A stretch of 64,000 nucleotides of DNA from Actinomycetota bacterium (GCA_050693875.1 JBOGWP010000159.1:6003-70002); one strand, 5' to 3'; shown: positions 5,393 through 37,840, counted from the first letter of the stretch. Notes: generated by a model not told the origin, from the sequence alone. Numbers and translations are program-made.

Positions 5393-5853
5393 CTAGTCGA
5401 GGTCCCCGGCTTCGATCCGCATGATGCGGCGGGCGCGGACGAGCTCTCCCTGACTCAGCAGCTCCATACGTTCGGGTTCGTCGAGTGCTTGTGCGAACAC
5501 GCCGATCAGGTCGCGCTGCGAGATCATCCCAACCACCCGCTCGCCGTCGAGGACGGGCAGGTGGCGAATCCAGTTGTCGGCCATGATCCGGGCGCACGCG
5601 CGGAGGCGCGTGTCGGGCGTGACCGTGACGAGCTCGGTCCGCATGACGTCCTTGAGCTGTACGAGCTTCGGGTCCCCGCCGCGGGCCACCACCTTCATGA
5701 GATCGCGTTCGGTGAAGATCCCGACCAGGCGGTCCCCGTCGACGACGAGCAGCGATCCTGTTTGCTGTTGAAACATCTTAGCCGAGGCCTCCGCAACGGT
5801 GTCTTCCGCGGTATCGGCGACGACGGCCTCGGTCATCACACTGGCAACTGTCA
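5393..5853 (-). CDS. CBS-pair domain protein
   Basis: Two CBS motifs (VVDGDRLVGIFTERDLM and VLDGERVVGMISQRDLI). The start is placed at the internal Met MTVASVMTEAVV; the upstream 85 aa of the ORF are Arg/Pro-rich shadow. Confidence 0.75.
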
Positions 5854-5996
5854 TAGCAAGTAAGTTTAGCCCTCCATCTGGTTTCCGCTCTGTTACATCA
5901 CAGGGAGGGCTTGACCTTCCCAGCAGGTCAAGCCGAGCCGTGCGCACCCGTCGGGCTCGAGGCACTAGGATCGCGGCCGATGAGGGCCCACCGACG

Positions 5997-7061
5997 TTGA
6001 ACGACCGCCGCATCCTGGTAACCGGAGGAGCCGGTTTTCTCGGAAGCCACTTCGTCCGCCACGCGCTCCGATCGGGGGCCGCGTTCGTTGCGAACCTCGA
6101 CCTGCTCACCTACGCCGGGGACCTCCGCCGGCTCGACGACATCGCCGGCGACCTGCGGTACGTGTTCGTGCGCGGCGACGTCGCGGAGGGGCGGGCGATA
6201 CGCGAGGTGTTCGCGGCGTACCGGCCCGACGTCGTGGTCCATTACGCCGCCGAGTCTCATGTGACGCGCAGCGAGCTTGCCTCGGACGCGTTCTTCCGGA
6301 CCAACGTCGAGGGCACCCGGGTGGTCCTCGAGTCGGCGCTGGAGGCCGGTGTCGAGCGAGTCGTGCACGTGTCGACCGATGAGGTCTACGGGCCGATCCT
6401 GTCGGGGGCGTTTGGTGAGGACGACAAGCTGCCCGGCGAGGGCGCGGCGACGAGCGCCTACGCCCGGTCCAAGGCCCTCGCCGACGATCTCGCCCGCTCC
6501 CTCGCGGCGGGGAGCACGCGCAGCGCGGTCATCGTCGCCCGGCCCACGAATGCATTCGGCCCGCACCAGTTCCCCGAGAAGGCCTTCCCGAGGTGGGCGA
6601 CCCGTGCCCTGCGAGGTGAGCCGCTGCTGGTTTGGGGAGACGGCCTCTACGTTCGCCAGTGGCTCTACGCCGAGGATTTCGCGCGGGCGATCGCGCTGCT
6701 CGTGGAGCGCGGCGATCCCGGCGGCGTCTACAACGTCGGTCCGCGCCATGATCCTGAGATCACCAACCTCGCCCTGGCGCAGTGGCTGAGGGATCGCCTC
6801 GAACTGACGCAGGAACGGCTGCAGATGACCGCCTACGACCGGCCCGATCACGATCGCCGGTACGCGGTGGATCCGTCGCGCATCGAAGCGCTCGGGTGGG
6901 CGCCGGGGGAGGTCTGGGAACAGTTCGGCCGGACGCTGGACTGGTACCGGGATCATGCCGCGTGGTGGGAGCCCCACATCGCCGAGGCGGAGTCGATCTA
7001 TGCCGACGCCGTCGAGGCGGGACGGGGTGCCCCGGCGGCGGCTCGCGGAGCCCGCCCGTGA
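5997..7061 (+). CDS. rmlB: dTDP-glucose 4,6-dehydratase
   Basis: Rossmann motif VTGGAGFLGSH and an extended-SDR YxxxK (YARSK). TTG start just before NDRRILVTGG; the long N-terminal ORF extension is rejected. Confidence 0.85.
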   Translation: MNDRRILVTGGAGFLGSHFVRHALRSGAAFVANLDLLTYAGDLRRLDDIAGDLRYVFVRGDVAEGRAIREVFAAYRPDVVVHYAAESHVTRSELASDAFFRTNVEGTRVVLESALEAGVERVVHVSTDEVYGPILSGAFGEDDKLPGEGAATSAYARSKALADDLARSLAAGSTRSAVIVARPTNAFGPHQFPEKAFPRWATRALRGEPLLVWGDGLYVRQWLYAEDFARAIALLVERGDPGGVYNVGPRHDPEITNLALAQWLRDRLELTQERLQMTAYDRPDHDRRYAVDPSRIEALGWAPGEVWEQFGRTLDWYRDHAAWWEPHIAEAESIYADAVEAGRGAPAAARGARP

Positions 7062-7579
7062 AGCTCCAGGAGCATCCCGACATTCCCGGGGTGGTGGTGG
7101 GCATGCCCACCGTCCACGAGGATATTCGGGGGTCGTTCCTCGAGATCTTCCGCGAGGACCTGCTGGGCGCCCCGTTCGTCCAGGCAAACCACTCGCATTC
7201 ACGGGCCGGTGTGCTCCGGGGGCTCCACTACCACCGCAAGCAGGCCGATGCCTGGTACGTCATCGGCGGCGAAGCCCAGGCGATGCTGGCGGACCTTCGG
7301 TCGCGAACCGAGCGACCCGCGGTGGCTTCAGTCGGTCTGGTGGCCGCCGAACCGAAGGTCCTCTACATTCCGCCCGGAGTGGCGCATGGATTTCTCGCTG
7401 TGACGGACGTCGATCTCATCTACTGGGTCACCCACTACTACGACGCCTCCGACGAGTTCGGCGTCGTCTGGAACGACCCCACCCTCGGGGCGCCCTGGCG
7501 GACCTCGGATCCCATCCTCTCGGCGCGGGATCTGGCCAACGCCCGGCTGGATTGGGACACGATCTCGGTTTCCTCGTAA
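7058..7579 (+). CDS. rmlC: dTDP-4-dehydrorhamnose 3,5-epimerase
   Basis: GTG start overlaps the rmlB stop (GTGA). KLQEHPDIPGVVVGMPTVHEDIRGSFLEIF aligns with the RmlC N-terminus, and the cupin core GLHYH is present. Confidence 0.85.
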   Translation: MKLQEHPDIPGVVVGMPTVHEDIRGSFLEIFREDLLGAPFVQANHSHSRAGVLRGLHYHRKQADAWYVIGGEAQAMLADLRSRTERPAVASVGLVAAEPKVLYIPPGVAHGFLAVTDVDLIYWVTHYYDASDEFGVVWNDPTLGAPWRTSDPILSARDLANARLDWDTISVSS

Positions 7580-7597
7580 CCGGCGCCGACGGCAAGA

Positions 7598-7710
7598 GGC
7601 GCGGCTTCCGTTGGTGATGCGCCGGGTGGCGACGACGTCGGGGTGAGTGAGAGGGCCTCGAATCCGGCGTCTTGGCGCGGCTTCCGTTGGTGATGCGCCG
7701 GGTGGCGACG
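7598..7710. repeat. two perfect 37-bp direct repeats (7598-7634 and 7674-7710) in the rmlC-rmlA intergenic region
   Basis: GGCGCGGCTTCCGTTGGTGATGCGCCGGGTGGCGACG occurs twice with 76-bp spacing. Read directly from the sequence. Confidence 0.85.
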
Positions 7711-7853
7711 GCCGAGTACTATGCTGGCCGGTCGCAGGGCATCGCTGGGCCCCCCCGAGATGAGCGTGCTCGACTGCTCGAAGGCTGGGGCCGCACGGCG
7801 TGGAGTTGCGGCCCCGGCGCGCTGCGGGTGGCCGAGTACGTGAGGGAGGTGGC

Positions 7854-8588
7854 GTGAAGGGAGTCGTGCTCGCCGGCGGGCTCGGAACCCGCTTCCACCC
7901 CGTCACCAAGGTCGTCAACAAGCACCTGCTCGACGTCTTCGACGAGCCGATGGTGTTCTATCCGATCCGGTCGCTGGCGGCTGCCGGCGTCACCGAGGTG
8001 ACCGTCGTCACCGGCGAGGAGATCTCGCAGTTCAAGCGCCTGCTGGGCGATGGGTCGACCCTCGGGGTGCACCTGTCGTACGCCTTTCAGGAGGGAGAGA
8101 GCGGGATTGCCGACGCGCTCAGCCGTGCCGAGGCCCTCGTCCAGGGCGAGCCGATCGTCGTCGTCCTGGGCGACAACATCTTTCAGGAGGACCTGTCGAG
8201 GTACCTCCGGGCGTTCTCGGAGCAGGGGAAGGGAGCCAAGATCCTTCTGAAGCAGGTGGGCCCCGAGGACACCCGGCGCTTCGGTGTGGCGGAGGTAGAC
8301 GACGGAAAGATCCTCGGGATCGAGGAGAAGCCCGACATCCCGAAATCGGACCTGGTGGTGACGGGGTGCTACATGTACGACGAGCGCGCGTTCGACTTCA
8401 TCCGCACGCTGCGCCCCTCCGGCCGGGGCGAGCTGGAGGTCACCGACCTCAACAACATCTACATCCAGGAGCGCACGATGACCTACGACGTGCTCCGCGG
8501 CTGGTGGACCGACGCCGGGACTCCGGCGAGCAAGCTCAAAGCCTCGATCCTGGTGGCGCTCGAAAAGGGGGTCACCTTCCACCGGTAA
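7854..8588 (+). CDS. rmlA: sugar-1-phosphate nucleotidyltransferase (glucose-1-phosphate thymidylyltransferase-like, short form)
   Basis: GTG start preceded by GGGAGG. Has the nucleotidyltransferase motif VLAGGLGTRF(HP) and VVLGDNIF. Confidence 0.75.
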   Translation: MKGVVLAGGLGTRFHPVTKVVNKHLLDVFDEPMVFYPIRSLAAAGVTEVTVVTGEEISQFKRLLGDGSTLGVHLSYAFQEGESGIADALSRAEALVQGEPIVVVLGDNIFQEDLSRYLRAFSEQGKGAKILLKQVGPEDTRRFGVAEVDDGKILGIEEKPDIPKSDLVVTGCYMYDERAFDFIRTLRPSGRGELEVTDLNNIYIQERTMTYDVLRGWWTDAGTPASKLKASILVALEKGVTFHR

Positions 8589-8633
8589 GGCACCGGCACC
8601 CAGGCTCCCGACCGATCGTCTCGCCGAACCTCG

Positions 8634-9782
8634 TCAGGGTCCCCGGGCCGGCAGGATGTCACCACGAGGCCGCCTCGGCACCGCCCCTCCTGCTGGAGAC
8701 GGTGCTTCCGCCGGGTCGGCCGCGGCCCTGCGAGCCGAGGCTCGACTGGCCGCCGCAGCCCGCTCACTGGTTTGTTCGCCCCGTTTCGGACTCCCGGGCT
8801 TGCGGGTCTCGGCCCGTCGGGCGCGGCGGCTCGCCTCCGCGGCCTGCGCCTTCCGAGCCTTGACGGCCGCCGGACGCGGCGCCGAGCGAATCCCACGGGC
8901 GGCAACGACCAGCAGCAGCACGGCGTTCAGCGCCCCGATGAGCCACAGCGGGAAGATCGGCTGGAACCCTGCGGCCCTGGCGAGGGTGCCTCCCGCCCAG
9001 GAGATCGTCGCCGTGGTCCGCATGAGGCCACCCCAGCGCGGGACCTCGTTCCAGGGGATCCGCACGGTGCGACGCTCACCCGGCCCGAGCCGAACTTCCT
9101 GCTCGGCCAGCTGGAAGGAACGGCCGGTGACAGTGGCGACCCGGGCACGCAGCTTCAGGGTCACCGCGTTCCCGCCCGGGTTGTTCACGAGCGCCTCGAA
9201 GGTCGCCGTCCGCGGGATGAGCACCCATGGGACGTCCATCCCGACCCTCTCGATCGACGGCCCCGTCGGGGCGCCCGAACCGGGATTCACCAGAAGCGCG
9301 ACGCGCGTGACCAGGTCCAGCGCGCCGCCACCCGCCCGTTCGTCGAGCTGCTCGGTCACGATCGCACCCAGGCCTCCCCTCCGCTCGTCGGAGATGTCGA
9401 CGGAGAAGTCGACGACACGTTCCGACTTCGGCCCGAGGGTCAGGTCGGTGACCGCCACACGGATCGCCGCCCCCAGACCCTCGGCTCGCGCCCCGAACGG
9501 CGCCACCGAGAGCGAGCCATCCTCCGAGCGGGCGGCGTCGGCGCCGTAGATGCGCAGGCGGATCTTCTCGGTGCTCTTGTTGTAGACGCGGATTGCATCT
9601 CGGACGGTGCCGCCGCCCGCGTCGGGCAGGAGGAACGACGTGCGGCGCTCCCCTTCGATCGCCCTGGGGTACGGTGCCACGCCGAACGTCTCGGTCTCAC
9701 CGGCTGCGGCCAGGCCGGGCAGAAGGGCCGCGCCCGCGACCCACGCCAACAGCCCCGCGAGCCTGTTCGCCCCCATCCCCAT
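8634..9782 (-). CDS. DUF916-like (CscA-like) cell-surface protein with a C-terminal membrane anchor
   Basis: Signal peptide, an Ig-like beta-rich region, and a single C-terminal TM helix (PLWLIGALNAVLLLVVAA) followed by a Lys/Arg-rich tail. Confidence 0.5.
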   Translation of the reverse strand: MGMGANRLAGLLAWVAGAALLPGLAAAGETETFGVAPYPRAIEGERRTSFLLPDAGGGTVRDAIRVYNKSTEKIRLRIYGADAARSEDGSLSVAPFGARAEGLGAAIRVAVTDLTLGPKSERVVDFSVDISDERRGGLGAIVTEQLDERAGGGALDLVTRVALLVNPGSGAPTGPSIERVGMDVPWVLIPRTATFEALVNNPGGNAVTLKLRARVATVTGRSFQLAEQEVRLGPGERRTVRIPWNEVPRWGGLMRTTATISWAGGTLARAAGFQPIFPLWLIGALNAVLLLVVAARGIRSAPRPAAVKARKAQAAEASRRARRAETRKPGSPKRGEQTSERAAAASRASARRAAADPAEAPSPAGGAVPRRPRGDILPARGP

Positions 9783-9784
9783 CG

Positions 9785-10807
9785 CTACTCCTCGATGAGC
9801 GTCACGGTCATCGTGCCGCGGTAGAGACCGGTGGGAACCCCGCTCAGGTCGCCCACGAGCAGGTTGGGGAGGCTCGTATAGCTCCCGGTCTGCTTCAGGA
9901 TCGAGCTCACGCTCGGAACGCCTGTGGCGGTGAGCAGTCCCTCGACCTGCGAGAGCAGCGCGTTGGTGATGAGGAGCGGGTTCACGTTGAGCGGCGCGGA
10001 GGTGAGCGCGGTGCGAACCGCGTCGTCGAGGCTGCTCTGGGTGATCATGCCCGCCGTCACTGCCTCGGCGCCGGTCAGGATCCCGTCGCCCCCGGCAGCC
10101 GTCGAGAAGATGCTGTTCTCGACCGTCTGCACCCAGGAGAGCAGATCCTGCTGGCTGCTGACGTTGCCCGCCTGCACCTGCACCGAGGTGGCGCCGGTTG
10201 CCGACGCGTCACAGGCGGCGTGGGGCGCCCGGTTGGCGAACGTCCCACCCGACCCGGTGGTCACCTTGATGGGGAGGGCGTCCTCGATGCCCGTGAAGAT
10301 GTTGCTGTTGGTGAAGTCCTGGAGCTGCTGGGTGACCGGCGACGTGACCGTCGATCCGCTGCTCAGCCCGAGCGCGGTGGCCAGGAGTCCGGTGATGCTG
10401 CCGGTGAGGTCGAGCACGGGCTGGGCCGAGGCCAGGACGTCGCGCACGCTGGTCGGGTTCGGCAGGAAGCCGATCGACATCTTGTTCGACGCTACCTGAC
10501 CTGCGCAGTCGTACGTGCCCGCCACCGCGTCGAACTTGTAGAGGTTGCTCATCATCCCGGTCACCTGGTAGTTCCTCCGGTCGTAGGCGAGGTCGGAGAC
10601 GTTCACCACGAAACCGGCGCTGCGGGCCGATCCGAGTGCGAGGGCGCTCAGGTCGGTGCCCGACAGCGACTTCACCGTCATCAGCCTCGACCCGCTGACG
10701 GTCGTTAGGGTGACCGTCGTCTGAACCGCCGCCTCGGCGGCGATGGCGATCGTCATGGCTGCAGCTGCGACGAGGAGCAGCAGCTTCTTTCTGCGCACCT
10801 TCATCAT
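9785..10807 (-). CDS. WxL-like Ser/Thr/Gly-rich secreted surface protein (CscB/C-like)
   Basis: Start at MMKVRRKK with a signal peptide, overlapping the upstream stop (ATGATGA). Low-complexity T/S/G-rich beta-rich sequence. Sits between two DUF916-like genes. Confidence 0.45.
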   Translation of the reverse strand: MMKVRRKKLLLLVAAAAMTIAIAAEAAVQTTVTLTTVSGSRLMTVKSLSGTDLSALALGSARSAGFVVNVSDLAYDRRNYQVTGMMSNLYKFDAVAGTYDCAGQVASNKMSIGFLPNPTSVRDVLASAQPVLDLTGSITGLLATALGLSSGSTVTSPVTQQLQDFTNSNIFTGIEDALPIKVTTGSGGTFANRAPHAACDASATGATSVQVQAGNVSSQQDLLSWVQTVENSIFSTAAGGDGILTGAEAVTAGMITQSSLDDAVRTALTSAPLNVNPLLITNALLSQVEGLLTATGVPSVSSILKQTGSYTSLPNLLVGDLSGVPTGLYRGTMTVTLIEE

Positions 10808-11112
10808 CCGTTCCTTTCGTTCGTCGGCGCGATCCGCTGTGTGCTGCGTACCTTCAGGAGCAGGAGGCCGGCTGCCAGCAGGGCGAGCGCGGCGGTGAGG
10901 GTTGCCGCGATGTCCGCTCCCGTCATCGGGACGTGCACGGGCGAGGAGGGGGGCTGCGGGGCCGGGGGGGCTTGCACGGCCGGGGTGGCCGGGCCCGCCG
11001 GGTCGACGATGACGGTGACGTCGACGTCCGCCATCGCCATCCGAGGCAAGGCGAAGACGACGCCGAGCAGGGCGGCAACGACGACGGCGCGGGTGAGACG
11101 GCGAAGGGGCAT
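10804..11112 (-). CDS. small surface protein with an LPXTG-like C-terminal sorting signal (CscD-like)
   Basis: Signal peptide, a Pro-rich linker, then VPMTG + hydrophobic segment + KVRSTQR basic tail. This resembles a sortase sorting signal. Confidence 0.4.
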   Translation of the reverse strand: MPLRRLTRAVVVAALLGVVFALPRMAMADVDVTVIVDPAGPATPAVQAPPAPQPPSSPVHVPMTGADIAATLTAALALLAAGLLLLKVRSTQRIAPTNERNG

Positions 11113-11123
11113 TGGCCGGGGTC

Positions 11124-12203
11124 CTAGTTCGGGTAGTAGACGACGCGGCGACGAGATCGAAGGCGGGTGGCGGCCTGCCGCCTTCGCCGCTCACGGCGCC
11201 GACGCACGATGAGAAGAAGGAAGAACAGGGCGAGCCCGAGCGTGCCGGCTGCGCCGGCAGCGATCGCCCAGGGAGGAAGGTCCAACTCGAGACTCCGCGC
11301 GTCGTTGCCGACGGGCCGAGCCGCGACGGGAGCCGCGGCGTTCCCGACCGCGGAAGGAAAGGTGAGCGTGGCTTGCGCGGCGCGCTCCAGCGAGCCGGAA
11401 CGGAGCACGATCCTCGCGTGCCACGGTCCGGCCGGCAGGTCCTTGTCGAGCGGAACGGCCAGGGTCGCTAGCCCCCCGATTGCGAGGGTCGTCCCCGGGG
11501 CCTGGAAGGGTCCCGCCGAGAGCTTCCCGGGGCCATCGGAGAGGGTGAGCTCGCCGTTCAGGTCGAGCGCGCGGCCCCCGATGTTGCGGACGCCGACGTC
11601 CACGACCGGAAGGCCATCGGACCCTCGGGCGGCGGCGAGGGACTCGACGGCGAAGTCGGAGGCGGGCTCTCCGCCCGGACCGACCGAAAGGTAGATGCGA
11701 ACCCCCACGCGGTTCACCACCGAGAGACCGCCGTCGGGAGCCTTCGTCGGAGGAAGCTCGGCCCAGACCACGGCGTAGCGCTCGCCCTCGGACGCCGAGC
11801 CAGGCACGCCGATCGTCACGGTGGCTTCCGCCACTGCCCCGGACGCGAGCTCGACCTCCTGGGGAGTTACATGGGTCCAGCTCGAGAGCTCATTCCGGGT
11901 GGTGCCCTCGAGAAACCGGAAGGTCTGACCCTCCACCGCCGCGCCGGCGGCATACAGCTTGACCTTGGTCGCCAAGGCCGTGCCGTTGGAGATCTCGACC
12001 CGGCGGGTGATGGTCGCGCCGGGGCTCAGGTGGTCGACGACATAGGCCTGGGCCCGAGGGTCGTTCGCCCGTGCTACGGGCGCGTCGAGGAGCCGGATGC
12101 CGACCCCGTCGGGCAGAGCGGCGGCATGCGCGGCGCGCGCCGGCGACAGGGTTGCTGCCGCCAGCGCTGCCGCGATGCCGAGGCGATGAAGTCGGTTAGG
12201 CAA
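11124..12203 (-). CDS. DUF916-like (CscA-like) cell-surface protein with a C-terminal membrane anchor
   Basis: TTG start gives a clean signal peptide (MPNRLHRLGIAAALAAATLSPARAAHA). C-terminal TM helix plus an RRRRERRRR tail. Paralogue of the 8634-9782 gene. Confidence 0.5.
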   Translation of the reverse strand: MPNRLHRLGIAAALAAATLSPARAAHAAALPDGVGIRLLDAPVARANDPRAQAYVVDHLSPGATITRRVEISNGTALATKVKLYAAGAAVEGQTFRFLEGTTRNELSSWTHVTPQEVELASGAVAEATVTIGVPGSASEGERYAVVWAELPPTKAPDGGLSVVNRVGVRIYLSVGPGGEPASDFAVESLAAARGSDGLPVVDVGVRNIGGRALDLNGELTLSDGPGKLSAGPFQAPGTTLAIGGLATLAVPLDKDLPAGPWHARIVLRSGSLERAAQATLTFPSAVGNAAAPVAARPVGNDARSLELDLPPWAIAAGAAGTLGLALFFLLLIVRRRRERRRRQAATRLRSRRRVVYYPN

Positions 12204-12729
12204 CGGAGTGGGTGATGGTGCCGGTATAGGTCCCGGCCACAGCCGCGGCCGGAATGTTGACGGTGACGGTGGGGTTCCATGTGGCCGAGTTGTTTCCGAC
12301 GATGACGGCGGCAGAGTACGCAGTTCGGGAGGTGCTGAGGTCCTCGGCCACGAGCTGGCCGGGGGTGAACGTCGCGACACCCGATGTCGTCGCGGTGCCC
12401 GAGAGGTAGGTGGCGTTGGACTTGTTGATGGTCTCGTTCGCGGTGGCCGACCCGGTCGTGAAGTTGGTCGACGACACCGAGGCCGTCCACGACCCGCCGA
12501 GGAGTCCTCGGGCGTCGGTCACGGTGACGTTGCCCAACGTCGTTGAGATCGAGGCCGAGCCGGTCGCCGCGGAACCCAGGTTCTTCGTGGCAGGCGCGCT
12601 CACGGTGAGCGAGCCCCCGGTCAGCGAGAACGTGGTGATGGTGTCCGCCGCCCAGGCCGGCAGGATGAGGGCCAACAATCCGACGGCGCTCAGCGCTGCG
12701 AGCACCGACACAACCAATCGCGTCTTCAT
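12196..12729 (-). CDS. WxL-domain-like secreted protein
   Basis: Signal peptide (MKTRLVVSVLAAL...AWA). Thr/Ser-rich with LGNVTVTDARG and GSWTASVSSTNFTTG motifs typical of WxL surface proteins. Confidence 0.5.
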   Translation of the reverse strand: MKTRLVVSVLAALSAVGLLALILPAWAADTITTFSLTGGSLTVSAPATKNLGSAATGSASISTTLGNVTVTDARGLLGGSWTASVSSTNFTTGSATANETINKSNATYLSGTATTSGVATFTPGQLVAEDLSTSRTAYSAAVIVGNNSATWNPTVTVNIPAAAVAGTYTGTITHSVA

Positions 12730-12894
12730 CGATCGCTCCTTTGCTGGTCGACGCATGTGCATCTGCACCAACAATCGGAGCGGCGCGGCCGCCGCCGCAT
12801 AGCCCTTCGGGGCCATTTCCGCTGGTCAGAGCGGTCTGGGAATCAGACGAAACCGACTCGGCCGGGGGCGCGGAACGGATTCGGGGCCCGGGGT

Positions 12895-13185
12895 CAGGGG
12901 GCCGCGATCGCTTTGATCGGGGAGTTGCGCGTGAGCCCGCCGGAGGATCCGAAGAAGGGAGCGTCCTCGAACGGGAACATCCCTCCGTCCCCCGCGGACA
13001 GCCAGCATCTCTCAGTCGGGGGGACACCCCCGACTCCCCCCCGAACCCCCCGGCTGAGGGGACGGGAGCGATCGCGATGATCGGGGAGTTGAGCTTGATC
13101 CCGCCGGTCGAGCCGAAGAAGCCGGCATCACGAAGGGCGAAGAGCCCGCGGTCAGTGCCCTCGAGCCAGTAGCCCGTGCACGTCG
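12895..13185 (-). pseudogene. remnant of two degenerate ~38-aa GYW/DGGVF repeat units, with no start or intact ORF
   Basis: Minus-strand translation gives ...WLSAGDGGMFPFEDAPFFGSSGGLTRNSPIKAIAA and ...[38 protein letters not shown]. Both are clearly related to the repeats at 19-42 kb. Confidence 0.45.
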
Positions 13186-13646
13186 TTGAGTAGGCCCGTG
13201 ATCAACTGCGACGGCCTGGACAGATTCCCCCGCGGGTCGAGCGCGCGGGCGGTCAAGGGACGAGTGCGGGAGTCACGGCGAACGCCGACGCCGGCAGGAG
13301 CGTTGCCACTGCGAGGGCTGCCACTGCGAGGAGCTGGATCAGCCTTGGCCATCTTCGACGCCCCCCCGGAGTGATCCATCGGTCGGGGCGCCGAATCACC
13401 GGTCCGTCCGCCGTGCCTCCCGTTGTCGCACGAACTTCCTCTGCTCGAATCGAGAAGTCGGTGTCGTGATCACGGCCCTTTGCCGCGTAGGGGTCCCTTC
13501 GACTCGCGTCAGCCACGTCAGCTCCTTCACGTCGACTGGTTGCCAGCGGTGTGCCACGAGGGTAGACGATAGAGATAAAACGGTCAACCAAAACCAATTA
13601 GTCAACGCAGGGCATCGCATGTGGGGACCTCCGCAGGGTGAGGGAT

Positions 13647-14124
13647 CTACCGCCGGTCGAGGGCGGTGCGGATCCAGCCTCTCGCGGCGTCGTGGAGCGG
13701 TTCGTACGCCTCCCAGATCGCGCGAGCCCACCGCTCCACCGCATCGGGGTAGTGCTCGGGGGGCACCCCAAGGACCTCCGCGATCGTCCTCGCGCCACGA
13801 AACGAGGGAAGTGACGGCTTCTGGACGCGGCGCGGTCCGTCGAGCCAGCGAAGCAGTGCCCGTCCCACCGCCGGATGGGCGCGATGCTCGAACGCCCAGC
13901 ACAGGCCGCCGAGGTGCGCCGCCAGCGACTTTCCCGAGGCGCAGTAGCGGTCGGGATGCTGCAGGCAGTGGGCGTCAACCGCCATCCGGTGGGCGCGCCA
14001 CGTTGGTGTTGGCCCGGCCGGACAGCTCCTCGAACAGGCCCTGGCAGCCGGCCGTCGCGCCCGGGAGCGACAGCCCGCACCCCGAGCAGGCGGCGGCGGC
14101 GTCATCGAAGGAGATCGCGTCCAT
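13647..14124 (-). pseudogene. Cys-rich (zinc-ribbon-like) protein split by a frameshift near 13985
   Basis: Frame 1 reads MDAISFDDAAAACSGCGLSLPGATAGCQGLFEEL...PPDGG-stop. Shifted by 1 nt it continues as MAVDAHCLQHPDRYCASGKS..., and the Cys pairs span the shift point. Confidence 0.35.
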
Positions 14125-14128
14125 GGGG

Positions 14129-15286
14129 TCAGGCGTGCTCCGAGGGAAGGGCTTCGATGGCGGTGTGGCAGGGGCTCGTCACGCCCAGCCATGAGCAGGC
14201 CTGGTCGACGGTTGCCTCCGCCATCCGCCGGAAGGTCGTGAACTTTCCTCCGGTGATCGTGAGCAATCCGCCCACGCCGTCACGCTCGGCATGGTCGAGG
14301 AGTGCCCAGGAGCGCGTGAGGCCCCGGTGGTCCCCGCTCCCCTCACGGCACTCCTCGAACAGCGGGCGGACTGCCGCCCAGGCCCGGGTGATCCCAGCTC
14401 CTCGGAGCTGAGGAACGAGCTGCTCCCCCTCCTCGAGCATCCGGTCGACCTCACCCTCGGGGACCTCGAGATCGCCGGGGCCCGCGGCGGGCCTGTCGCT
14501 CGTCCCCATCACCGACTCCCCTCCCATCGGAACGAGGATGTCGCCGTCGGAGGGCGCCCGGCAGCGGTTGAGGACCATCCGCGCCACGCGCGTCGTTGCG
14601 ACCATCACGCCCCGGCTCGTCACCACCTTCACCCGGCAGTGCGCGAGCGCGGCGACCTCATCCGCCCAGGCGCCGGCTGCGTTGATCACCGCCGCGGCGC
14701 GGATCTCCTGCTCCTCGCCGGCCGCTGCCGCCCGCCGCACCACCGCCCCGGCGACGGCGTCGCGTTCCACCAGAAGTCGCACGACTCGGTGGTTGGTGAG
14801 GACCCGGGCGCGCCGCCGGCGTGCCGCACGCGCGCACGCGCGGACGACGCCCGCCGCGTCGACGGCCGCGTCCCGTACGCGGAAGACCCGGACCACCCGC
14901 GGGTTCAACCCGGGTTCCTCCCGGCGCGCCTGCTCGGCGCCGATCTCGACCGCGGGGATCCTCAGGGCCGCGCACGCCTCCGCCCATCGCTGGGCATACG
15001 TGTGGTCGTCGCCCGCGGCGACGACGAAGAGACCTCCGGTGTCCTCGATCCACGGGGCGGCGACTCTTCGCAGGATCGCGTTCTCCTCCCTGCACTCGGT
15101 GGCCGCCCCGGGATCGGCAACCGCGTAGCGCGCCCCGGAGTGGAGGAGCCCGTGGAATCGCCCGGTCGTCCCCGATGCGAGCTCCCCGGCCTCGACGAGG
15201 ACGACCCCCAGGCCGCGCAGCGCGGCGTCCCACGCGACGCCCGCGCCGGTCGAGCCGCCGCCGACGACGAGCAGGTCGGTCTCCAT
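14129..15286 (-). CDS. FAD-dependent oxidoreductase, glycerol-3-phosphate dehydrogenase (GlpA/GlpD)-like
   Basis: Has the FAD-binding motif LLVVGGGSTGAGVAWDAALRG. Starts at the internal METDLLVV just downstream of glpK; the 950-aa ORF in the track is an in-frame fusion shadow. Confidence 0.6.
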   Translation of the reverse strand: METDLLVVGGGSTGAGVAWDAALRGLGVVLVEAGELASGTTGRFHGLLHSGARYAVADPGAATECREENAILRRVAAPWIEDTGGLFVVAAGDDHTYAQRWAEACAALRIPAVEIGAEQARREEPGLNPRVVRVFRVRDAAVDAAGVVRACARAARRRRARVLTNHRVVRLLVERDAVAGAVVRRAAAAGEEQEIRAAAVINAAGAWADEVAALAHCRVKVVTSRGVMVATTRVARMVLNRCRAPSDGDILVPMGGESVMGTSDRPAAGPGDLEVPEGEVDRMLEEGEQLVPQLRGAGITRAWAAVRPLFEECREGSGDHRGLTRSWALLDHAERDGVGGLLTITGGKFTTFRRMAEATVDQACSWLGVTSPCHTAIEALPSEHA

Positions 15287-15288
15287 CC

Positions 15289-16797
15289 TCACTCCTGCCC
15301 GGCCCAATCGAGCGTCCGGGCAACCGCCTTCTGCCAGAAGCGGTACCGGCCCGCGCGCTCGCGCTCGTCCATCTCCGGGGTCCACGTCCGATCCGCGGTC
15401 CACCGGCTGCGCAGCTCGTCGAGCCCCGACCACACGCCGGTTCCAAGCCCCGCGGCATAGGCTGCGCCGAGCGCGGTGGTCTCGGAAAGGGCCGGGCGCA
15501 CCACCGGCACGCCCAGTACGTCGGCCTGGAACTGCATGAGGATCTCGTTGGCAACCATCCCGCCGTCGACCTTGAGCGACGACAGGCGCAGCCCGGAGTC
15601 GGCCACCATGGCGTCGGCGACCTCCCGGGTCTGCCAGGCGGTGGCCTCGAGCGCGGCTCGGGCCAGATGCCCGGCGGTGGCGTAGCGCGTCAGGCCGGCG
15701 ATGACCCCGCGCGCGTCGCTCCGCCAGTGTGGCGCGAAGAGGCCGGAGAAGGCGGGGACGAAGTACACGCCGCCGTTGTCCTCGACCGAGCGGGCCAGGT
15801 CCTCCACCTGGGCGGAGTGCTCGATCACCCCGAGGTTGTCCCGCAGCCACTGCACCGCCGCCCCCGCGATCGCGACGGACCCCTCCAGGCAGTAGACGGG
15901 CGGTTCGGCGCCGATCCGGTAGCCGACGGTGGTGACGAGCCCGCTCTTCGACGGCACCGGTCGGAGGCCCGTGTTCAGGAGGAGGAAGCAGCCGGTTCCG
16001 TAGGTGTTCTTCGCATCGCCAACCTCGAAGCATGCCTGGCCGAAGAGCGCGGCCTGCTGGTCGCCCAGGAGCCCCGCAATCGGGACCCCCGGTGCCGCGG
16101 TGGCCGCCTCCCCGTGGACGCCGACCGATGAGCGGATCTCGGGGAGGATCGCCGCAGGGATGCCGAGCTCGGCCAGGATCCCCGGGTCCCACGCCAGGCG
16201 CTCGAGGTCCATCAGCATCGTCCGGCTGGCGTTCGTCACGTCCGTGACGTGCACGCCCCCGATGGGCCCACCGGTCAGGTTCCAGAGCAGCCAGGAGTCG
16301 ACCGTTCCGAAGGCAAGCTCCCCTGCCTCCGCTCGCTCTCGGACACCTGGGACGTGCTCGAGGAGCCAGGCGAGCTTCGGGCCGGAGAAGTAGGTGGCGA
16401 TCGGCAGGCCGGTGAGCGCGCGGAAGCGGTCGATCCCGCCGTCCGCGGAGAGCTCGCGGCAGATCGCGTTCGTGCGCATGTCCTGCCACACAATGGCGTT
16501 GGCGAGCGGCCGTCCCGTCGCCCGTTCCCACATCACTGTCGTCTCGCGCTGGTTGGCTATGCCCAGAGCGGCGAGGTCGGTGGAGGAGAGGCCGGCGGCG
16601 TCGAGGGCGTCGTGCAGCACCTCCCGGCTTCCCTCCCAGATCTCGACGGGGTCGTGCTCGACCCACCCCGCCCGTGGATAGATCTGCCGGTGCTCCTTCT
16701 GGGCTGCCGCGACCGGGCTTCCGCCCGCGTCGAAGATCAGGAAGCGGGTGCTGGTGGTTCCCTGGTCGAGCGCGCCGACGTAGCGGGGGCCGGTCAC
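15289..16797 (-). CDS. glpK: glycerol kinase
   Basis: Full-length FGGY kinase with the GlpK N-terminus ([18 protein letters not shown]) and conserved blocks throughout. Confidence 0.9.
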
Positions 16798-18083
16798 AGC
16801 CGCACGATCGGCCCGTCGCGCCCGGCGAGGGCGTTGCGGGTGTCGAAGATCCGCCGGGCCGTCGAGGCGATGTACCCCCAGTCGTAGCTCGAGTGGTCGG
16901 TGACGACGAGCACCAGGTCGGCCCCTGCGAGTGCCTCCGCGTCCAGCCGGGAGCGCGCCATCCTGCCCCCCGGCAGGTCAAGGGCCTCGACGTAGGGGTC
17001 GTGGAAACCGACCTCGGCTCCCGCCTTGCCGAGCCGGGTCAGGATCTCCAGCGCCGGGGACTGGCGCACGTCGCCGACGTCCCGCTTGTAGCTGACCCCG
17101 AGCAGCAGGACGCGTGCCCCCTTCAGGCTCCTGCCGTCCTCGTTGAGGACCTCGGCGACGCGCTGGACGACGTAGCCCGGCATGCGAGCATTGAGCTCGC
17201 GGGCAAGCTCGACGAACCGGGCCGTCTCGCCCATCCTGCGAACCCGCCAGGACAGATAGGCGGGATCCACAGGGACACAGTGCCCGCCCCAGCCCGGCCC
17301 GGGATAGAAGGGATGAAAGCCGAACGGCTTCGTCGCCGCGGCGTCGATCACCTCCCAGACGTCGATGCCGAGGTCGCGGCAGAGGATGGCCATCTCGTTG
17401 GCCAGGGCGATGTTGACGTGGCGGTAGGTGTTCTCGAGGAGCTTCGCCATCTCGGCGACCCGTGGGGAGGAAACCGAGACGACCCGCTCGACGAAGCATT
17501 CGTAGAACGCCCGCATCAGCGCGGTGCTGCGCGCGTCGATCCCCCCGACGATCTTCGGGACGTTGCCGAGTCCGAACCTGGCGTTGCCCGGGTCGATGCG
17601 TTCAGGAGAGAAGCCGAGAGCGAAGTCCGGCCCCGCCCGCAGTCCCGACGTCTCGAGCACCTCCCGGAGCAGCTCCTCGGTGGTGCCGGGGTAGGTCGTG
17701 CTCTCGAGCACCACCAGGACGCCCGGGCGAAGGTTGCGGGCGACGTCCTTGGCGGCGGCCTCGAGGCAGGAGAGGTCGGGCAGGTCGTCGCGCAGCGGCG
17801 TCGGGACGCAGATGGCCACCACCTCCGCGTCGCGAAGGGCTTCGGACTCCGACGTCGGCGTGAACCGTCCCGACCCGAGGGCCCCGGCGACATCGTCGGA
17901 GGACACGTCGAGGATGGGCGACGCTCCGCTCCGCAGGGCACCGATCCGCTCCTCGTCGACGTCGATGCCCCGCACGGAGAACCCGGCGGCGACGGCACGC
18001 AGCGAGAGGGGGATCCCGACGTACCCGAGGCCGAGTACGGCGACGCGGGCGGAGCGGTCGCGGATCCGGTCGAGGAGGGCCAC
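16794..18083 (-). CDS. nucleotide-sugar dehydrogenase (UDP-glucose/GDP-mannose dehydrogenase family)
   Basis: N-terminal NAD fold [14 protein letters not shown]. The central GHCVPVDP has the catalytic Cys, and a C-terminal UDP-binding domain is present. Confidence 0.8.
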
Positions 18084-18167
18084 GCTGCGTCGAGTCTAGG
18101 GCGGGGCCCGCCGGGCTGCCTTCCGAGGCGGCAGGGGGGACGATCGGCCGGGGTGACGAGCGCGGAC

Positions 18168-19306: not shown

Positions 19307-20578
19307 CTAGCTGCTCCGCCCCTCCAAGGCCACGATTGGCGAGTTGAGCGCCTGTCCGCCGGCGCTCCCCCTGAACGGCGCCCCGCCGAACGAGAACACC
19401 CCCCCGTCGGCAGCTCCCATCCAGTAGCCCTTGCCCAGCGGTTCGGTCGCCATCGACACGATCGGCGAGACCAGACGCAGGCTCCCGGTGGATCCGAGGA
19501 AGGGAGCGTCACCGAACGCGAAGACCCCGCCGTCGGACGCGACCAGCCAGTAGCCCTCACCTGAGGGGGTCACGTCGGCCGCGACGATCGGCCGGTTGAG
19601 CACCCTACCGCCGGTGGAGCCGAGGAAGGGGGCCTTGCTTCCGAACGCGAACACGCCGCCGTCGGCGGCGAACAGCCAGTAGCCGTCAGGCGGGGGGACA
19701 CCCCCCGCCTCCCCCCCCAGTCCTCCGCCCGAGGGCACCGCGGCGATCGCGACGATGGGTGAGTTGAGGCGGATGCCGCCGGTGGATCCGAGAAAGACTG
19801 CGTCTCCGAAGGCGAAGACGCCCCCGTCGGCCGCCACGAGCCAGTAGCCCGCACCGCTCGGGGTCGATGCCATCCCGACGATCGGAGAGTTGAGGCGGAT
19901 GCCGCCGGTGGAACCGTGGAAGCCCGATCGGCCGAAGGCGAAGATGCCGCCGTCCGAGGCGACCAGCCAGTACCCGAGGCCGGTAGGGTGCGACTTCATC
20001 GCCACGATCGGCCGGTTGAGCTTGGTCCCGCCGACTCCGCCGAGGAACGGAGCGTCGCCGAACGCAAACACTCCACCGTCGGCGCCCACCATCCAGTACC
20101 CCTGCCCCTCGCCGTTCTGGCCGACCCAGGTGGCGAAGACCGGCTCGCGGGGCCGGTCCTCCTCCTCCGGTGGGGGAGTGCCGTCGAGGGGTTCGTTGTC
20201 GGCATAGACGCGCAGGCGGAAGGTGCCCGGGGTTGCGGAGGTGAAGCTGAAGAAGGCCCGCCCGTCGGCGCTCGTGCCGCCCGTCTGGGGATCGATCTCC
20301 GGGCCGAAGTCGCTGCAGTCGGCGTTCAGGCACTGGAGCTTTACAGCCACCAGCTCCTGATCGGGGTTCGGGGTCCCGTCGGCCCGCCTTGCGACGACGG
20401 CGATCTCGTGGATCTCCCCAACCGGAAGGACCCCTGCCGCGGGCCCGATGGTGAGCGTCGCAGTTGCAGCGGCCGGAACCGCACCGGCTGGGGCCCACGC
20501 CGTCGCGAGGACCGCGGCGATCGCGAAAGACAGCGTCGCGATGCTCCGCCGGTGGGGACTGCCGAATGAGGTCTTCAT
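19307..20578 (-). CDS. secreted protein: N-terminal Ig-like domain plus six C-terminal ~38-aa GYW/DGGVF repeats
   Basis: Signal peptide after MKTSFGS. Repeats are of the form [36 protein letters not shown]. Confidence 0.7.
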   Translation of the reverse strand: MKTSFGSPHRRSIATLSFAIAAVLATAWAPAGAVPAAATATLTIGPAAGVLPVGEIHEIAVVARRADGTPNPDQELVAVKLQCLNADCSDFGPEIDPQTGGTSADGRAFFSFTSATPGTFRLRVYADNEPLDGTPPPEEEDRPREPVFATWVGQNGEGQGYWMVGADGGVFAFGDAPFLGGVGGTKLNRPIVAMKSHPTGLGYWLVASDGGIFAFGRSGFHGSTGGIRLNSPIVGMASTPSGAGYWLVAADGGVFAFGDAVFLGSTGGIRLNSPIVAIAAVPSGGGLGGEAGGVPPPDGYWLFAADGGVFAFGSKAPFLGSTGGRVLNRPIVAADVTPSGEGYWLVASDGGVFAFGDAPFLGSTGSLRLVSPIVSMATEPLGKGYWMGAADGGVFSFGGAPFRGSAGGQALNSPIVALEGRSS

Positions 20579-21021
20579 GCTCCCTCCTGTCCGCCCCCCA
20601 GTGCCGGGGCCAAGTAAACCATTGAACGCGGTGAGTGGGTTGAGGTCGGCGCCTGTGGCGATCGCCGAACGCACCCGGGGCTAGGCGAACAATCCGGAGG
20701 TTTTGCTCGTCTCTTCGCGGTAGGAAAATTCATCGGCCTTTTCCGTAGTTTGCAGGTATCCCCCGGGCCCCGCACACCGAATAATTCGACCTTTGGAAGG
20801 CCGAGCCTGGGTCTCGGCCGGGGAGCAGCCAGGGGGTCGGGGGCGACCGCTCTCTTGCCTGCACCATCCGCGGTTTCACGGCGCGCGAGGAGGACCTGAT
20901 GGATCGAGGTAAGGCACGACGGAGCCTGGGGGCAGCGGGAGACATCCTCGCCGGAGGGAAAGGGCCGCACTCGCGGCGGCAGTCGCCGGGCAAACGAAGC
21001 CGGCTGCGCGCGTGGTCGCCG

Positions 21022-27348: not shown

Positions 27349-29193
27349 TTGCGACGTCGCACGCTCCTTGCCCACTCCGCCTTCCTGCTGGCCACCCTCG
27401 GCGTGTTCCCCGCATCGGGGGCCGAACAGACCATCGGCGCCGGGGCGACACTGAAGGATGCCGGCGGCGCCGATATTGGGTTCGTCTTCTTCGAGCAGGT
27501 CGGCGATGAGGTCGGGGTGGTCGTCGAGGTCCACGGGGGCATCGACCCCGGCTTCCACGGGTTCCACATTCACGACGTGGGCGACTGCACCGGCCCGACC
27601 TTCGTCTCGGCCGGTCTGCATTTCAAGCCAGGCAGCACCGATCACGCCGCCCATGCCGGCGACCTGCCGGCGCTCCTCGTGAACCAGGGCAACGCCGCGG
27701 TGGCCACCTTCATGACCGACCGCTTCGAGGTCTCCGACCTCTTTGGGGGAGACGGCACCTCGATCGTGATCCACGCCGACCCCGACAACTACGCCAACAT
27801 CCCCGACCGCTACTCCTCGAACGAGGGGGGTGCGCCGCCGACGGGGCCGGATACCACGACGCTGACTGCTGGCGACTCCGGCGACCGCGTGGCCTGCGGC
27901 GTGATCGAGGGCGCCGACGAGATGGCCTCGGACTTGAAGGCGGCAGAGGCTGCGTTCACCTCACCCGGCTATTGGATGGTGGCCTCAGACGGCGGCGTGT
28001 TCGCCTTCGACGCACCGTTCAAGGGCTCCACCGGCGGGATCGCCCTGAACCAGCCCATCGTCGCGATGGACGGAACCCCGTCAGGGGAGGGCTATTGGAT
28101 GGTGGCCTCAGACGGCGGTGTGTTCGCCTTTGCCGACGCCGGGTTCAAAGGGTCGACCGGCGGAACGAAGCTCAACAAGCCGATCGTCTCGATGGCGGCG
28201 ACCGAGACCGGAAACGGCTATTGGATGGCTGCGAGCGACGGCGGCGTCTTCGCCTTCGGCGACGCCGGCTTCCTCGGCTCCACGGGAGGGATCACCCTGA
28301 ACTCGCCGATCGTCGGCATGGCCGGCCGGCACCCGGGTGCTCAGGCCGACATCAAGAACACCGCCGGCCAGGTCGTCGGCCGCGCACGCTTCGAGGAGGC
28401 GGACGGTGCGCTGTTCGTCACGGCGGAGCTCAGCGGGCTGACGCCCGGCTTTCACGGGTTCCACATCCACACGACGGGAGAGTGCACGGGGAGCTTCACC
28501 TCCGCCGGTGGACATATCAACCCGGCGCCGGCCCAGCCCCACGGTGACCACATCGGCGACCTCCCCGTGCTGCTGGTCGAGGCCGACGGGACCGTCACGG
28601 GGGCCACATACGCGACCGACCGCTTCACGCTCGCCGACCTCTTCGACGCCGACGGGAGCGCGCTCGTCGTGCACTCCGCTCCAGACAACTTCGCCAACAT
28701 CCCAGACCGCTACTCCTCGAGCGAGCCCGGCGCGCCGGCGACGGGGGCGGACGCCACGACGCTCGCCGCGGGGGACTCGGGCTCGAGAGTGGCCTGCGGG
28801 GTCGTCGAGGGTTCGGACAAGCCCGGCTACTGGATGGCGGCTGCCGACGGCGGCGTGTTCGCCTTCGGCGGAGCGGCCTTCCACGGCTCTACCGGGTCGA
28901 TCAAGCTCAACAAGCAGATCGTGGGCATGGCGGCAACCCCAAGTGGCCAGGGCTACTGGCTGGTCGCCTCGGATGGCGGGGTCTTCGCCTTCGGAGATGC
29001 CAAATTCCACGGCTCCACCGGTTCGATCAAGCTCAACTCGCCGATCGTCGGGATCGCATCCACACGAACCGGTGAGGGCTACTGGCTGGTTGCCGCAGAC
29101 GGCGGTGTGTTCGCCTTCGGTGACGCCGAGTTCAAGGGGTCGACCGGCAGTCTCAAGCTCAACAAACCGATCGTGGCGGTGGCCGCCGCCTAG
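27349..29193 (+). CDS. secreted tandem Cu/Zn superoxide dismutase (SodC) domains, each followed by three GYW/DGGVF repeats
   Basis: TTG start with a GAAGGAGG RBS, then a signal peptide. Both SodC domains have the full ligand set (HGFHIHD; H..H..H..D; IVIHADPDN; GDSGDRVACGVIEG). Confidence 0.8.
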   Translation: MRRRTLLAHSAFLLATLGVFPASGAEQTIGAGATLKDAGGADIGFVFFEQVGDEVGVVVEVHGGIDPGFHGFHIHDVGDCTGPTFVSAGLHFKPGSTDHAAHAGDLPALLVNQGNAAVATFMTDRFEVSDLFGGDGTSIVIHADPDNYANIPDRYSSNEGGAPPTGPDTTTLTAGDSGDRVACGVIEGADEMASDLKAAEAAFTSPGYWMVASDGGVFAFDAPFKGSTGGIALNQPIVAMDGTPSGEGYWMVASDGGVFAFADAGFKGSTGGTKLNKPIVSMAATETGNGYWMAASDGGVFAFGDAGFLGSTGGITLNSPIVGMAGRHPGAQADIKNTAGQVVGRARFEEADGALFVTAELSGLTPGFHGFHIHTTGECTGSFTSAGGHINPAPAQPHGDHIGDLPVLLVEADGTVTGATYATDRFTLADLFDADGSALVVHSAPDNFANIPDRYSSSEPGAPATGADATTLAAGDSGSRVACGVVEGSDKPGYWMAAADGGVFAFGGAAFHGSTGSIKLNKQIVGMAATPSGQGYWLVASDGGVFAFGDAKFHGSTGSIKLNSPIVGIASTRTGEGYWLVAADGGVFAFGDAEFKGSTGSLKLNKPIVAVAAA

Positions 29194-36791: not shown

Positions 36792-36874
36792 GACGTGAAA
36801 GGAAACCACGCGGCGGCGGGTCGCCGCAGGTTTTCCGGCGGATCTGCACGGCCCGTCTGCTAGCGTTTCCCGCC

Positions 36875-37840
36875 GTGGGGGTCGAGCAGCAGGACCGGCG
36901 GGCCAGAACCGTGCGCAAGGCACGTCAGCTCCTCGCGCGCGGGATCCGCCGCTCCCCGCGACTGCGCTTGATGGCGGAGCGGGCGGTTTCGGAGCTGGAG
37001 CGGGCCCTCGTCGCCGAGGATCTCTACAGCTCCCGGTACTTCGGCACCGGAGTTCACCCCACCGACCGCGGAAAGAGTGTCTCCGGCTACGCCGAGTACC
37101 GGCGCGAGACGTCGAACCTGAACGTGGCGGCCTACATCGTCTACAAGCATCTGCGCCCCGCCCGCGTCGTCGATATCGGGGCGGCGCGGGGGTATCTGCT
37201 CGAGGCGCTCTCGGAGGTCGGCGTCGAGGGTCATGGGGTCGACCTCAGCCATGACGCGATCGCGTCCGCCTCCGACGAGGTCCGGGGCCGGATGACCGTC
37301 GCCTCGGCGGTGCGCCTGCCGGTCGTAACTGGGGCCGCCCCCGTTGTCACGGCGTTCGAGACGCTCGAGCACCTGCCGCCGCACGACGTGTCCCGGGCAC
37401 TGGCCGAGCTGGCCCGGGCCACGAGTGCGTTCGTCGTGGCGACCATCCCCTCATTCGGTCGGAACGACTACGGGCCGAACGGATGGTACGGGGGCAAGGT
37501 CCTCTGGGAGGTCCTACATGCGTACGAGGCCCTCGGCCCAGACTACGAGGGGCCGATCCCCTATCACGACCTGATGCGCGACGGGGAGAACAACCCGATC
37601 GAGGGACATTTGACCATCGCATCCTTCTCGTGGTGGACCAAGCGCTTCGCCGAAGCCGGCCTGGTGCGGTTCGGCAAGCTCGAGGAGGCGATGAACGCCG
37701 ACCTCGGCCGGTTCGGGCTCCTCGGGCAGCAGATCTGGCACCTTTACGTGGCGGGCAAGCCCGAGGCGGAGATCCCGCAGGGGGCGTCCTACGAGGAGGC
37801 CCTGCGGGCTGAGGAAGTCCTCGACCTCGGCCGGGGGTGA
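36875..37840 (+). CDS. class I SAM-dependent methyltransferase
   Basis: Motif [16 protein letters not shown] and [15 protein letters not shown] start. Confidence 0.65.

Follow-up and report, generated by a model that had tools for sequence, protein, structure and literature searches.

Within a window of 64,000 nucleotides, by which we mean the whole stretch of DNA analysed, from a metagenome-assembled Actinomycetota bacterium (GCA_050693875.1, JBOGWP010000159.1:6003-70002), we have identified at positions 8634-12729 a cluster filled by five successive open reading frames (ORFs) on the minus strand, P1 to P5, which encode proteins of 177, 359, 102, 339 and 382 amino acids; the window proteins are registered under the NCBI locus tags ACRDJ4_13085 to ACRDJ4_13105. 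The cluster is probably an operon for a non-covalently assembled cell-surface complex of the WxL/WxLIP (Csc) type, in a highly divergent actinobacterial form that comprises two modules. An identical stretch is present on contig CDGWAG010000186.1 (GCA_975100735.1), where an independent gene call gave the same five genes with the same lengths, confirming the five consecutive minus-strand genes described in an earlier note prepared from the sequence alone. From P1 to P5 the genes are separated, in order, by an 8-nucleotide overlap, an 11-nucleotide gap, a 1-nucleotide overlap and a 2-nucleotide gap, and because of these tight spacings and overlaps they almost certainly form one operon. A scan for promoters and terminators at 8300-13300 returned nothing above shuffled expectation. 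The G+C fraction is 0.70 across the cluster and equal in its flanks, so that the composition of the region is flat.

P1 (12196-12729, minus), found both as an ORF and by gene call, is a small secreted WxL-like protein with a signal peptide ending in AWA, no further hydrophobic segment and 31% serine plus threonine. P2 (11124-12203, minus), a WxLIP-like protein, begins at a TTG start that accounts for the 8-nucleotide overlap with the stop of P1; it carries a hydrophobic signal at its N-terminus and a single C-terminal hydrophobic segment, a transmembrane (TM) helix by hydropathy (11202-11270, minus, residues 312-334), followed by an Arg-rich tail that opens with RRRRERRRRQ. P3 (10804-11112, minus) is a small Pro-rich secreted protein, CscD-like, which ends in a sortase-type sorting signal (10843-10932, minus) with its three elements of pentapeptide, hydrophobic segment and basic tail; it reads VPMTG at residues 61-65, a hydrophobic stretch of 25 residues at 66-90 and the end KVRS, as had been described earlier, and it is the only LPXTG-like sorting signal within the window. 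P4 (9785-10804, minus) is an acidic secreted protein with a signal peptide, no other hydrophobic segment and 23% serine plus threonine, possibly a WxL-like domain split by an insert. P5 (8634-9782, minus), the second WxLIP-like protein, consists of an N-terminal signal, one or more immunoglobulin (Ig)-like ectodomains, a TM helix by hydropathy (8886-8966, minus, residues 273-299) and an Ala/Arg/Pro-rich basic tail of about 85 residues. Hydropathy and composition thus agree with the earlier note on the signal peptide, single C-terminal TM helix and basic tail of P2 and P5, and on the Ser/Thr-rich nature of P1 and P4.

Families and structures of the five proteins

The WxL domain is distinguished by two conserved Trp-x-Leu motifs (PMC9772566); another of its marks is that it binds peptidoglycan non-covalently. 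More than 1085 homologues of P1 were found, and the 120 listed share 55-72% identity with it; every one for which a source gives a name goes by "hypothetical protein". Its motifs are VTDARG..GSWTASVSSTNF in the first region and GTYTGTITHSVA at the C-terminus, and the family alignment conserves D72, R74, G75, W81 and F90 within VTDxRG..GxWTxSVxSxDF, as well as a C-terminal GxYxGTxTHSxA. This conserved layout resembles the pair of motif regions of WxL proteins, except that W-T-A and T-H-S stand where W-x-L would be expected. One homologue, P0092, of equal length and 59% identical to P1, reaches 26.5 bits on PF13731 (WxL), above the Pfam gathering score of 25; the match extends over residues 63-176 against positions 88-210 of the 214 positions of the hidden Markov model, thereby including both motif regions and the run to the C-terminus. 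Matches to PF13731 of any strength were found in 1 of the 36 P1 relatives scanned. The link to WxL is not wholly invisible in public data, because at least one actinobacterial member of the family already carries a PF13731 match there.

As with WxL proteins, in which the domain comes after a signal peptide and lies at the C-terminal end, the P1 family includes small domain-only forms and large forms; P1 itself consists of a signal peptide and the domain. In the large relatives (430-1140 amino acids) the P1-like domain always occupies the extreme C-terminus (at least 20 proteins; for example residues 895-1039 of 1040), and it is preceded by N-terminal domains of the legume-lectin-like, fn3, He_PIG, FG-GAP and DUF11/DUF7927 kinds.

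P2 belongs to a family of more than 2791 homologues, and none of the 120 listed has a Pfam domain on record. When scanned individually, 14 of 36 relatives matched PF06030 (WxLIP_PGBD, DUF916) with a best E-value of 2.3e-5, and the five relatives re-scanned singly gave at most 16.2 bits, under the gathering score of 27.3. The DUF3324 model (PF11797), which the earlier note had also proposed for comparison, matched neither P2 nor P5 nor any other P2- or P5-family protein scanned, the 36 P2 relatives included. The AlphaFold2 model of P2 (pLDDT 89) contains two beta-sandwich, Ig-like domains and a helix at residues 311-352, and the first three Foldseek ranks among 350,542 PDB chains are 9i1y_A, 9i25_C and 9i1y_B, all of them Enterococcus faecium WxLIP (E 4.5e-13 to 5e-12, probability 1.00). 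The alignment to 9i1y comprises 268 columns on a chain of 267 residues, and 9i25_C is WxLIP bound to long WxL in the solved complex deposited as PDB 9i25. P2 is therefore similar in fold to solved WxLIP, and both P2 and P5 have the WxLIP architecture, namely a signal peptide, two Ig-like domains, one C-terminal TM helix and a length of about 320-380 amino acids.

After WxLIP, the next structural matches of P2 are RbmA and the chaperones of chaperone-usher systems. Moreover, the AlphaFold2 model of P1, a beta-sandwich with pLDDT 78, gave weak and generic PDB matches (the GH123 N-terminal domain, BcpA, the donor-strand pilins CsuA/B, CS17 and CfaB, and cannula subunits), with no WxL chain among them. 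A chaperone-subunit fibre system can be conceived from these matches, in which P1, and perhaps P4, would be a pilin-like protein with an incomplete Ig fold that polymerises by donor-strand exchange; the conserved N-terminal extension ADTTTTFxL would be the exchanged strand, P2 and P5 would act as membrane-tethered, PapD-like capping or delivery chaperones, and P3 would anchor the resulting surface fibre, which would take the place of a static complex. The matches of P2 to CfaA, CsuC, Caf1M, FimC, CupB2 and EcpB (E 4.5e-9 to 1e-6, target-normalised TM-scores of 0.5-0.59) and those of P1 to donor-strand pilins are in line with such a system. So are residues 23-38 of P1 (the end of the signal peptide and the mature start), where pLDDT falls below 50 although the mature part is highly conserved, with T33 and F34 invariant. 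In addition, the published prediction for the enterococcal WxLIP-WxL pair is itself a strand complementation, in which a loop of the N-terminal domain of WxLIP turns into a strand and closes a gap in the sandwich of WxL (PMC10599100, PMC9772566). However, the structural matches are weak, no gene for an usher or polymerase, by which a chaperone-usher system would be recognized, is present, and the large, adhesin-like relatives have the domain at their C-terminus, which suits an anchoring module more than it does a subunit of a fibre. We therefore consider a fibre system unlikely here, and equally the wider proposal that WxL/WxLIP pairs are the monoderm donor-strand counterpart that builds fibres or arrays on the surface of actinobacterial hyphae and cells. 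If it were true, the whole WxL superfamily, Firmicutes included, would be an unrecognised class of Gram-positive fibre or anchoring machinery.

With regard to P5, a 308-amino-acid protein of a related locus, L081 (1513-2439), is 36% identical to it (E 7e-53) and scores 36 bits on PF06030 (E 8e-9), above the gathering score. The same protein also has a weak match to Fimbrial_K88 (PF02432; E 0.0017, residues 140-244), perhaps a faint echo of chaperone-usher fimbrial folds. A word-indexed homologue search with full-length P5 returned P5 itself only, its low-complexity Ala/Arg tail having probably crowded the candidates, and its relatives were obtained through the gene neighbours of P4 homologues. 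Several of these P5-like proteins have just 200-217 amino acids (L052 7501-8100, L083 4506-5129 and L085 1445-2098) and consist of one Ig-like domain and a TM helix, while P5 and its L081 homologue keep two domains; judging from these lengths, the second (HBD-like) domain seems dispensable in this branch. P2 and P5 had been regarded as paralogues, but they are not obvious ones: BLASTP gave an out-of-register match only, and a profile comparison gave an in-register alignment of 210 columns at no more than 62% probability.

P3, P4 and P5 recur together. In the P4-homologue loci (four contigs and one genome locus), the P4-like gene is accompanied by genes for a small protein bearing a sorting signal and for a P5-like, TM-anchored protein of 200-310 amino acids. 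The P4-like gene is followed by the P5-like gene in L081, L052, L083 and L085, with the small LPXTG gene upstream of this pair in every case but L085, in which it comes after the P5-like gene; L082 has an LAMTG gene and a P4-like gene, and then the contig ends. The positional counterparts of P3 read PARTG (L081), LAMTG (L082), LPFTG (L083), LPLTG (L085) and LPRTG (L052). The LPFTG protein has a weak Pfam Gram_pos_anchor match on record, and P3 itself matches the NCBIfam LAXTG/LAVTG models weakly (E 0.002-0.01, under the cut-off).

An exhaustive HMMER search placed P4 in a family of 136 cluster representatives, nearly all of 320-390 amino acids and matching from end to end. Its motifs are VNVSDLAYDRRNYQVTGMMSNLY in the N-terminal and GLYRGTMTVTLIEE in the C-terminal part. 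PF13731 matched 1 of 50 P4 relatives (E 0.004), and P4 as a single sequence gave no match to the P1 profile. In the comparison of profiles, the P4 and P1 families align over the last 25 columns only, which form the C-terminal hairpin (44% probability); sub-alignments cut by hand gave 87% when restricted to the 50 C-terminal residues and 65% when the N- and C-terminal parts were joined without the insert, these being constructs shaped by the hypothesis and thus weak evidence. A WxL-like sandwich interrupted by an insert of about 170-190 residues is thus only suggested for P4. Of the two WxL-like secreted proteins that had been claimed for the cluster, P1 is supported, through the PF13731 match of P0092, whereas P4, with one weak match and partial profile alignments, is unproven.

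Distribution and surroundings of the cluster

P1 relatives were scanned with one genome per species and were found at 446 places in these species-representative genomes. We fetched 79 of the loci, and all 79 belong to Actinomycetota. They include Herbidospora, Streptosporangium, Sphaerisporangium, Frankia, Kitasatospora, Streptomyces, Streptacidiphilus, Micromonospora, Plantactinospora, Catellatospora, Actinomadura, Nonomuraea and Acidimicrobiia, and among the orders are Streptosporangiales, Frankiales and Micromonosporales. A P2-like gene directly follows the P1-like gene in approximately 72 of 80 loci (about 90%), many loci hold a second P1-like protein, small or large (430-1140 amino acids), and in Micromonospora and Catellatospora a small LPVTG protein comes directly after P2. 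The pair formed by P1 and P2 (module A) adjoins the group formed by P3, P4 and P5 (module B) in the window, in L052 and in L083. The actinobacterial gene contexts thus reproduce the published WxL clusters, which combine a small WxL with a large one that has N-terminal binding domains, a WxLIP and, in many cases, an LPXTG protein. In a locus of an uncultured Actinomycetota metagenome-assembled genome (MAG; L074, 7854-12640), five tandem P1-like small genes precede one P2-like gene, an expansion that might represent variable or exchangeable cargo.

WxL/WxLIP clusters have been described as a feature of low-GC Gram-positive bacteria, mainly gut commensals, in which they are linked to host binding and virulence (PMC9772566, PMC10599100). 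In a bioinformatic survey that likewise called the domain a low-GC Gram-positive feature, more than 91% of the Pfam WxL sequences came from Firmicutes. The earlier note found such a cluster unusual in high-GC DNA and proposed that horizontal transfer be considered. The only point found in favour of recent transfer from low-GC Firmicutes is that most of the WxL clusters described so far come from Bacilli. Against it, the cluster does not differ from its flanks in composition, the relatives occupy 446 places in species-representative genomes with every fetched locus in Actinomycetota, and the Firmicute proteins, as represented by the PDB chains, are too dissimilar for HMMER to detect. Transfer of this kind is therefore very improbable, and we rejected it on composition and distribution. 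The high-GC setting itself is not unusual either, given the number of P1-family loci, their host phylum and the flat composition. The cluster is neither a rarity nor a recent acquisition, but part of a probable WxL/WxLIP sister branch spread through Actinomycetota, from Streptomyces, Kitasatospora, Micromonospora, Frankia and Streptosporangiaceae to Acidimicrobiia and many soil MAGs. Of the actinobacterial family members listed, nearly all named ones are called "hypothetical protein" and nearly all are without precomputed Pfam domains; in the literature, we found no paper describing WxL/WxLIP clusters in Actinomycetota. The locus is unusual only in being unannotated and missing from the WxL papers found, and the actinobacterial WxL-type cluster is ordinary in mechanism and under-recognised in distribution.

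Regarding the surroundings, the flanks at 5800-8590 and 14100-18100 hold RmlA-like, RmlC-like and RmlB/D-like nucleotide-sugar genes on one side; on the opposite side lie DUF5946, a glycerol-3-phosphate dehydrogenase-like gene, glycerol kinase, UDP-glucose dehydrogenase and a GT4 glycosyltransferase. From the neighbours of this locus, a tie of the cluster to wall-polysaccharide synthesis is possible. A P4-family locus (L084) has an NTP_transferase gene and a PAP2 gene nearby.

Just upstream of P1, a decayed gene (12817-13600, minus) occupies most of the stretch of about 900 bp without a called gene that extends from DUF5946 to P1. It starts with an intact-looking signal-peptide ORF (13253-13597), after which come two copies of a 42-amino-acid repeat broken by stops and a frameshift. 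These are the degenerate repeat fragments that the earlier note had placed at 12895-13185, and they are real: the stretch is 75% identical over 244 bp to 19608-19851 (E 2e-40) and translates to two frame-broken copies of the repeat. Elsewhere in the window (19300-42100), the 126-bp (42-amino-acid) repeat, with a consensus that begins GYW[LM], occurs in 2-5 tandem copies, for example at 19307-20674 (minus), 27349-29193 (plus), 29292-31439 (minus), 35058-36923 (minus) and 39868-42078 (minus). It is carried by otherwise unrelated secreted enzymes, including a double Cu/Zn superoxide dismutase, an Amidase_2 peptidoglycan amidase, a SpoIID-domain protein and an FG-GAP protein. Pfam does not recognize the repeat itself, which looks like an undescribed cell-wall-targeting or propeller-type module.

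A putative surface complex and its known counterparts

The reading of the cluster as a Csc/WxL surface complex is supported, by homologues and structure and thus indirectly throughout, because P0092 passes the PF13731 threshold, the L081 homologue of P5 passes that of PF06030, and P2 matches WxLIP best among PDB structures. Several results weigh against it. P1 to P5 themselves gave zero significant HMMER matches to Pfam and NCBIfam, PF13731, PF06030 and PF11797 included, the sole on-topic Pfam signal of the five being that of P5 to PF06030 (E 0.34); it is for this reason that the families of homologues were examined. The earlier note had stated that no significant hit to the WxL or DUF916 profiles would overturn its proposal and, read literally, this is what was obtained; the core of the proposal is supported through the homologues and the structure of P2. 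Furthermore, the Trp-x-Leu motifs are altered: the first motif of P1 keeps the invariant W81 as W-T-A and the second is T-H-S, invariant in the family, while the corresponding positions of P4 read Y-Q-V and V-T-L (alignment A3), and the profile alignments that tie P4 to WxL are short or built by hand. The TM-scores of P2 to WxLIP are low (0.33-0.44), which is probably due to the inter-domain geometry of the model and to the included helix. When the P1 family profile (A1), the P2 profile (A2) and P0092 were searched against PDB sequences (E<=10), the WxLIP and WxL chains of 9i1y and 9i25 were not found, and the search returned only an unrelated minor pilin, an Ig-repeat protein and RACK1. Finally, a scan for the TLxTC-type motif revealed no sortase in the window, nor within 8 kb of the cluster in 80 related loci.

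The lack of direct Pfam and NCBIfam matches could also be taken to mean that these are generic Ig-fold secreted and membrane proteins unrelated to WxL and WxLIP, whose gene content is convergent or coincidental. In fact, NPCBM_assoc equals PF06030 as the commonest Pfam match of the P2 relatives (14 of 36 each, PF06030 having the better best E-value), and their other matches, at similarly weak levels, are to generic Ig-like families (DUF4232, Ig_VWA7 and fn3_5). The C-terminal G-x-Y-x-G-T-x-T pattern is moreover common at the ends of beta-sandwiches, and the P1 and P4 families both match one segment of Glyco_hydro_123_N_2. Nonetheless, two different family members exceed the curated gathering scores of precisely the families expected, PF13731 and PF06030, WxLIP is the best of all 350,542 PDB chains for P2, and the partnership, the dichotomy of small and large forms, the strictly C-terminal domain and the small LPXTG companion are all reproduced. 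We judge an unrelated origin to be improbable, somewhat more so than the fibre system, and retain the WxL/WxLIP type of complex as the preferred interpretation.

In such a complex, module A would consist of P1, the anchor-less small secreted WxL-like beta-sandwich, and the WxLIP-like P2, and module B of P3, the small Pro-rich sortase substrate, P4, probably a WxL-like domain with a large insert, and P5, the second WxLIP-like protein. All five proteins would be exported by Sec. P2 and P5 would then remain in the cytoplasmic membrane of the bacterium through their C-terminal helix, with the Arg-rich tail inside the cell, and with their membrane-distal N-terminal Ig domain P2 would capture P1, and P5 would capture P4, at the outer face of the membrane. 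By analogy with the strand complementation predicted for the enterococcal WxLIP-WxL pair, capture may occur through a donated beta-strand that completes the sandwich of P1 or P4. P3 would be joined covalently to the peptidoglycan by a sortase encoded elsewhere in the genome. Anchoring of P2 and P5 in the bacterium's own membrane is suggested because the long Arg-rich tails after the TM helix fit the positive-inside rule; this argues for an arrangement different from the proposal that the WxLIP helix enters the host membrane (PMC10599100), and it is on this published proposal that the tails bear. Since the large relatives of P1 have adhesin-like and lectin-like domains, the role of the complex is probably, by comparison with them, adhesion or polysaccharide binding at the wall.

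If this interpretation is true, it would provide a function class for thousands of unannotated proteins that are nearly invisible to Pfam. The WxL system would then be an ancient and general way for monoderm bacteria to hold anchor-less proteins at the wall, rather than a device of host adaptation, and culturable, genetically tractable organisms would become usable for testing it.

The cluster definition, by Hassan et al. 2023, and the strand-insertion model are those of PMC10599100 and PMC9772566. Compared with the former, the window has two WxLIP-like genes next to a single supported WxL-like gene, P1, while P4 is only suggestive as a second WxL. The WxL loci of E. faecium and E. faecalis (PMC9772566, PMC10599100, PDB 9i1y/9i25) comprise small and large WxL proteins, a DUF916/DUF3324 WxLIP and a small LPXTG protein. 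Like them, the present cluster encodes a small domain-only secreted protein, a two-Ig TM protein and a small sortase substrate, all with signal peptides; the domain lies at the extreme C-terminus in the large relatives, WxLIP is the best structural match of P2, and members of the families pass the Pfam thresholds. Unlike them, its sequences fall below HMMER detection against the enterococcal chains, Trp-x-Leu is replaced and no PF11797 signal was seen. Two WxLIP-like genes, each with its own partner, take the place of the commonest arrangement of one WxLIP with two WxL, P4 carries a large insert and is without separate N-terminal adhesin domains, and the host is an environmental high-GC actinobacterium, from soil, rather than a gut commensal.

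The csc clusters of Lactiplantibacillus plantarum (Siezen et al. 2006, PMC1534035) consist of CscA, a DUF916 protein with a TM anchor, the WxL proteins CscB and CscC, and CscD, a small LPXTG protein. The four-role composition and the tightly packed operon are common to them and to the cluster studied here. The csc clusters are tied to carbohydrate utilisation, whereas the neighbours in the window are nucleotide-sugar and wall-polysaccharide genes, and the sequences are far more divergent. With the chaperone-usher pili (CsuC-CsuA/B, CfaA-CfaB, Caf1M-Caf1 and FimC-FimG), which are secondary structural matches of P2 and P1, the cluster shares a two-Ig protein with a small beta-sandwich partner, and strand complementation is the likely shared binding mode. 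Yet an usher is absent, the host is monoderm, a C-terminal helix anchors P2 and there is no detectable sequence relationship; the likeness is a resemblance of mechanism and not membership of that class.

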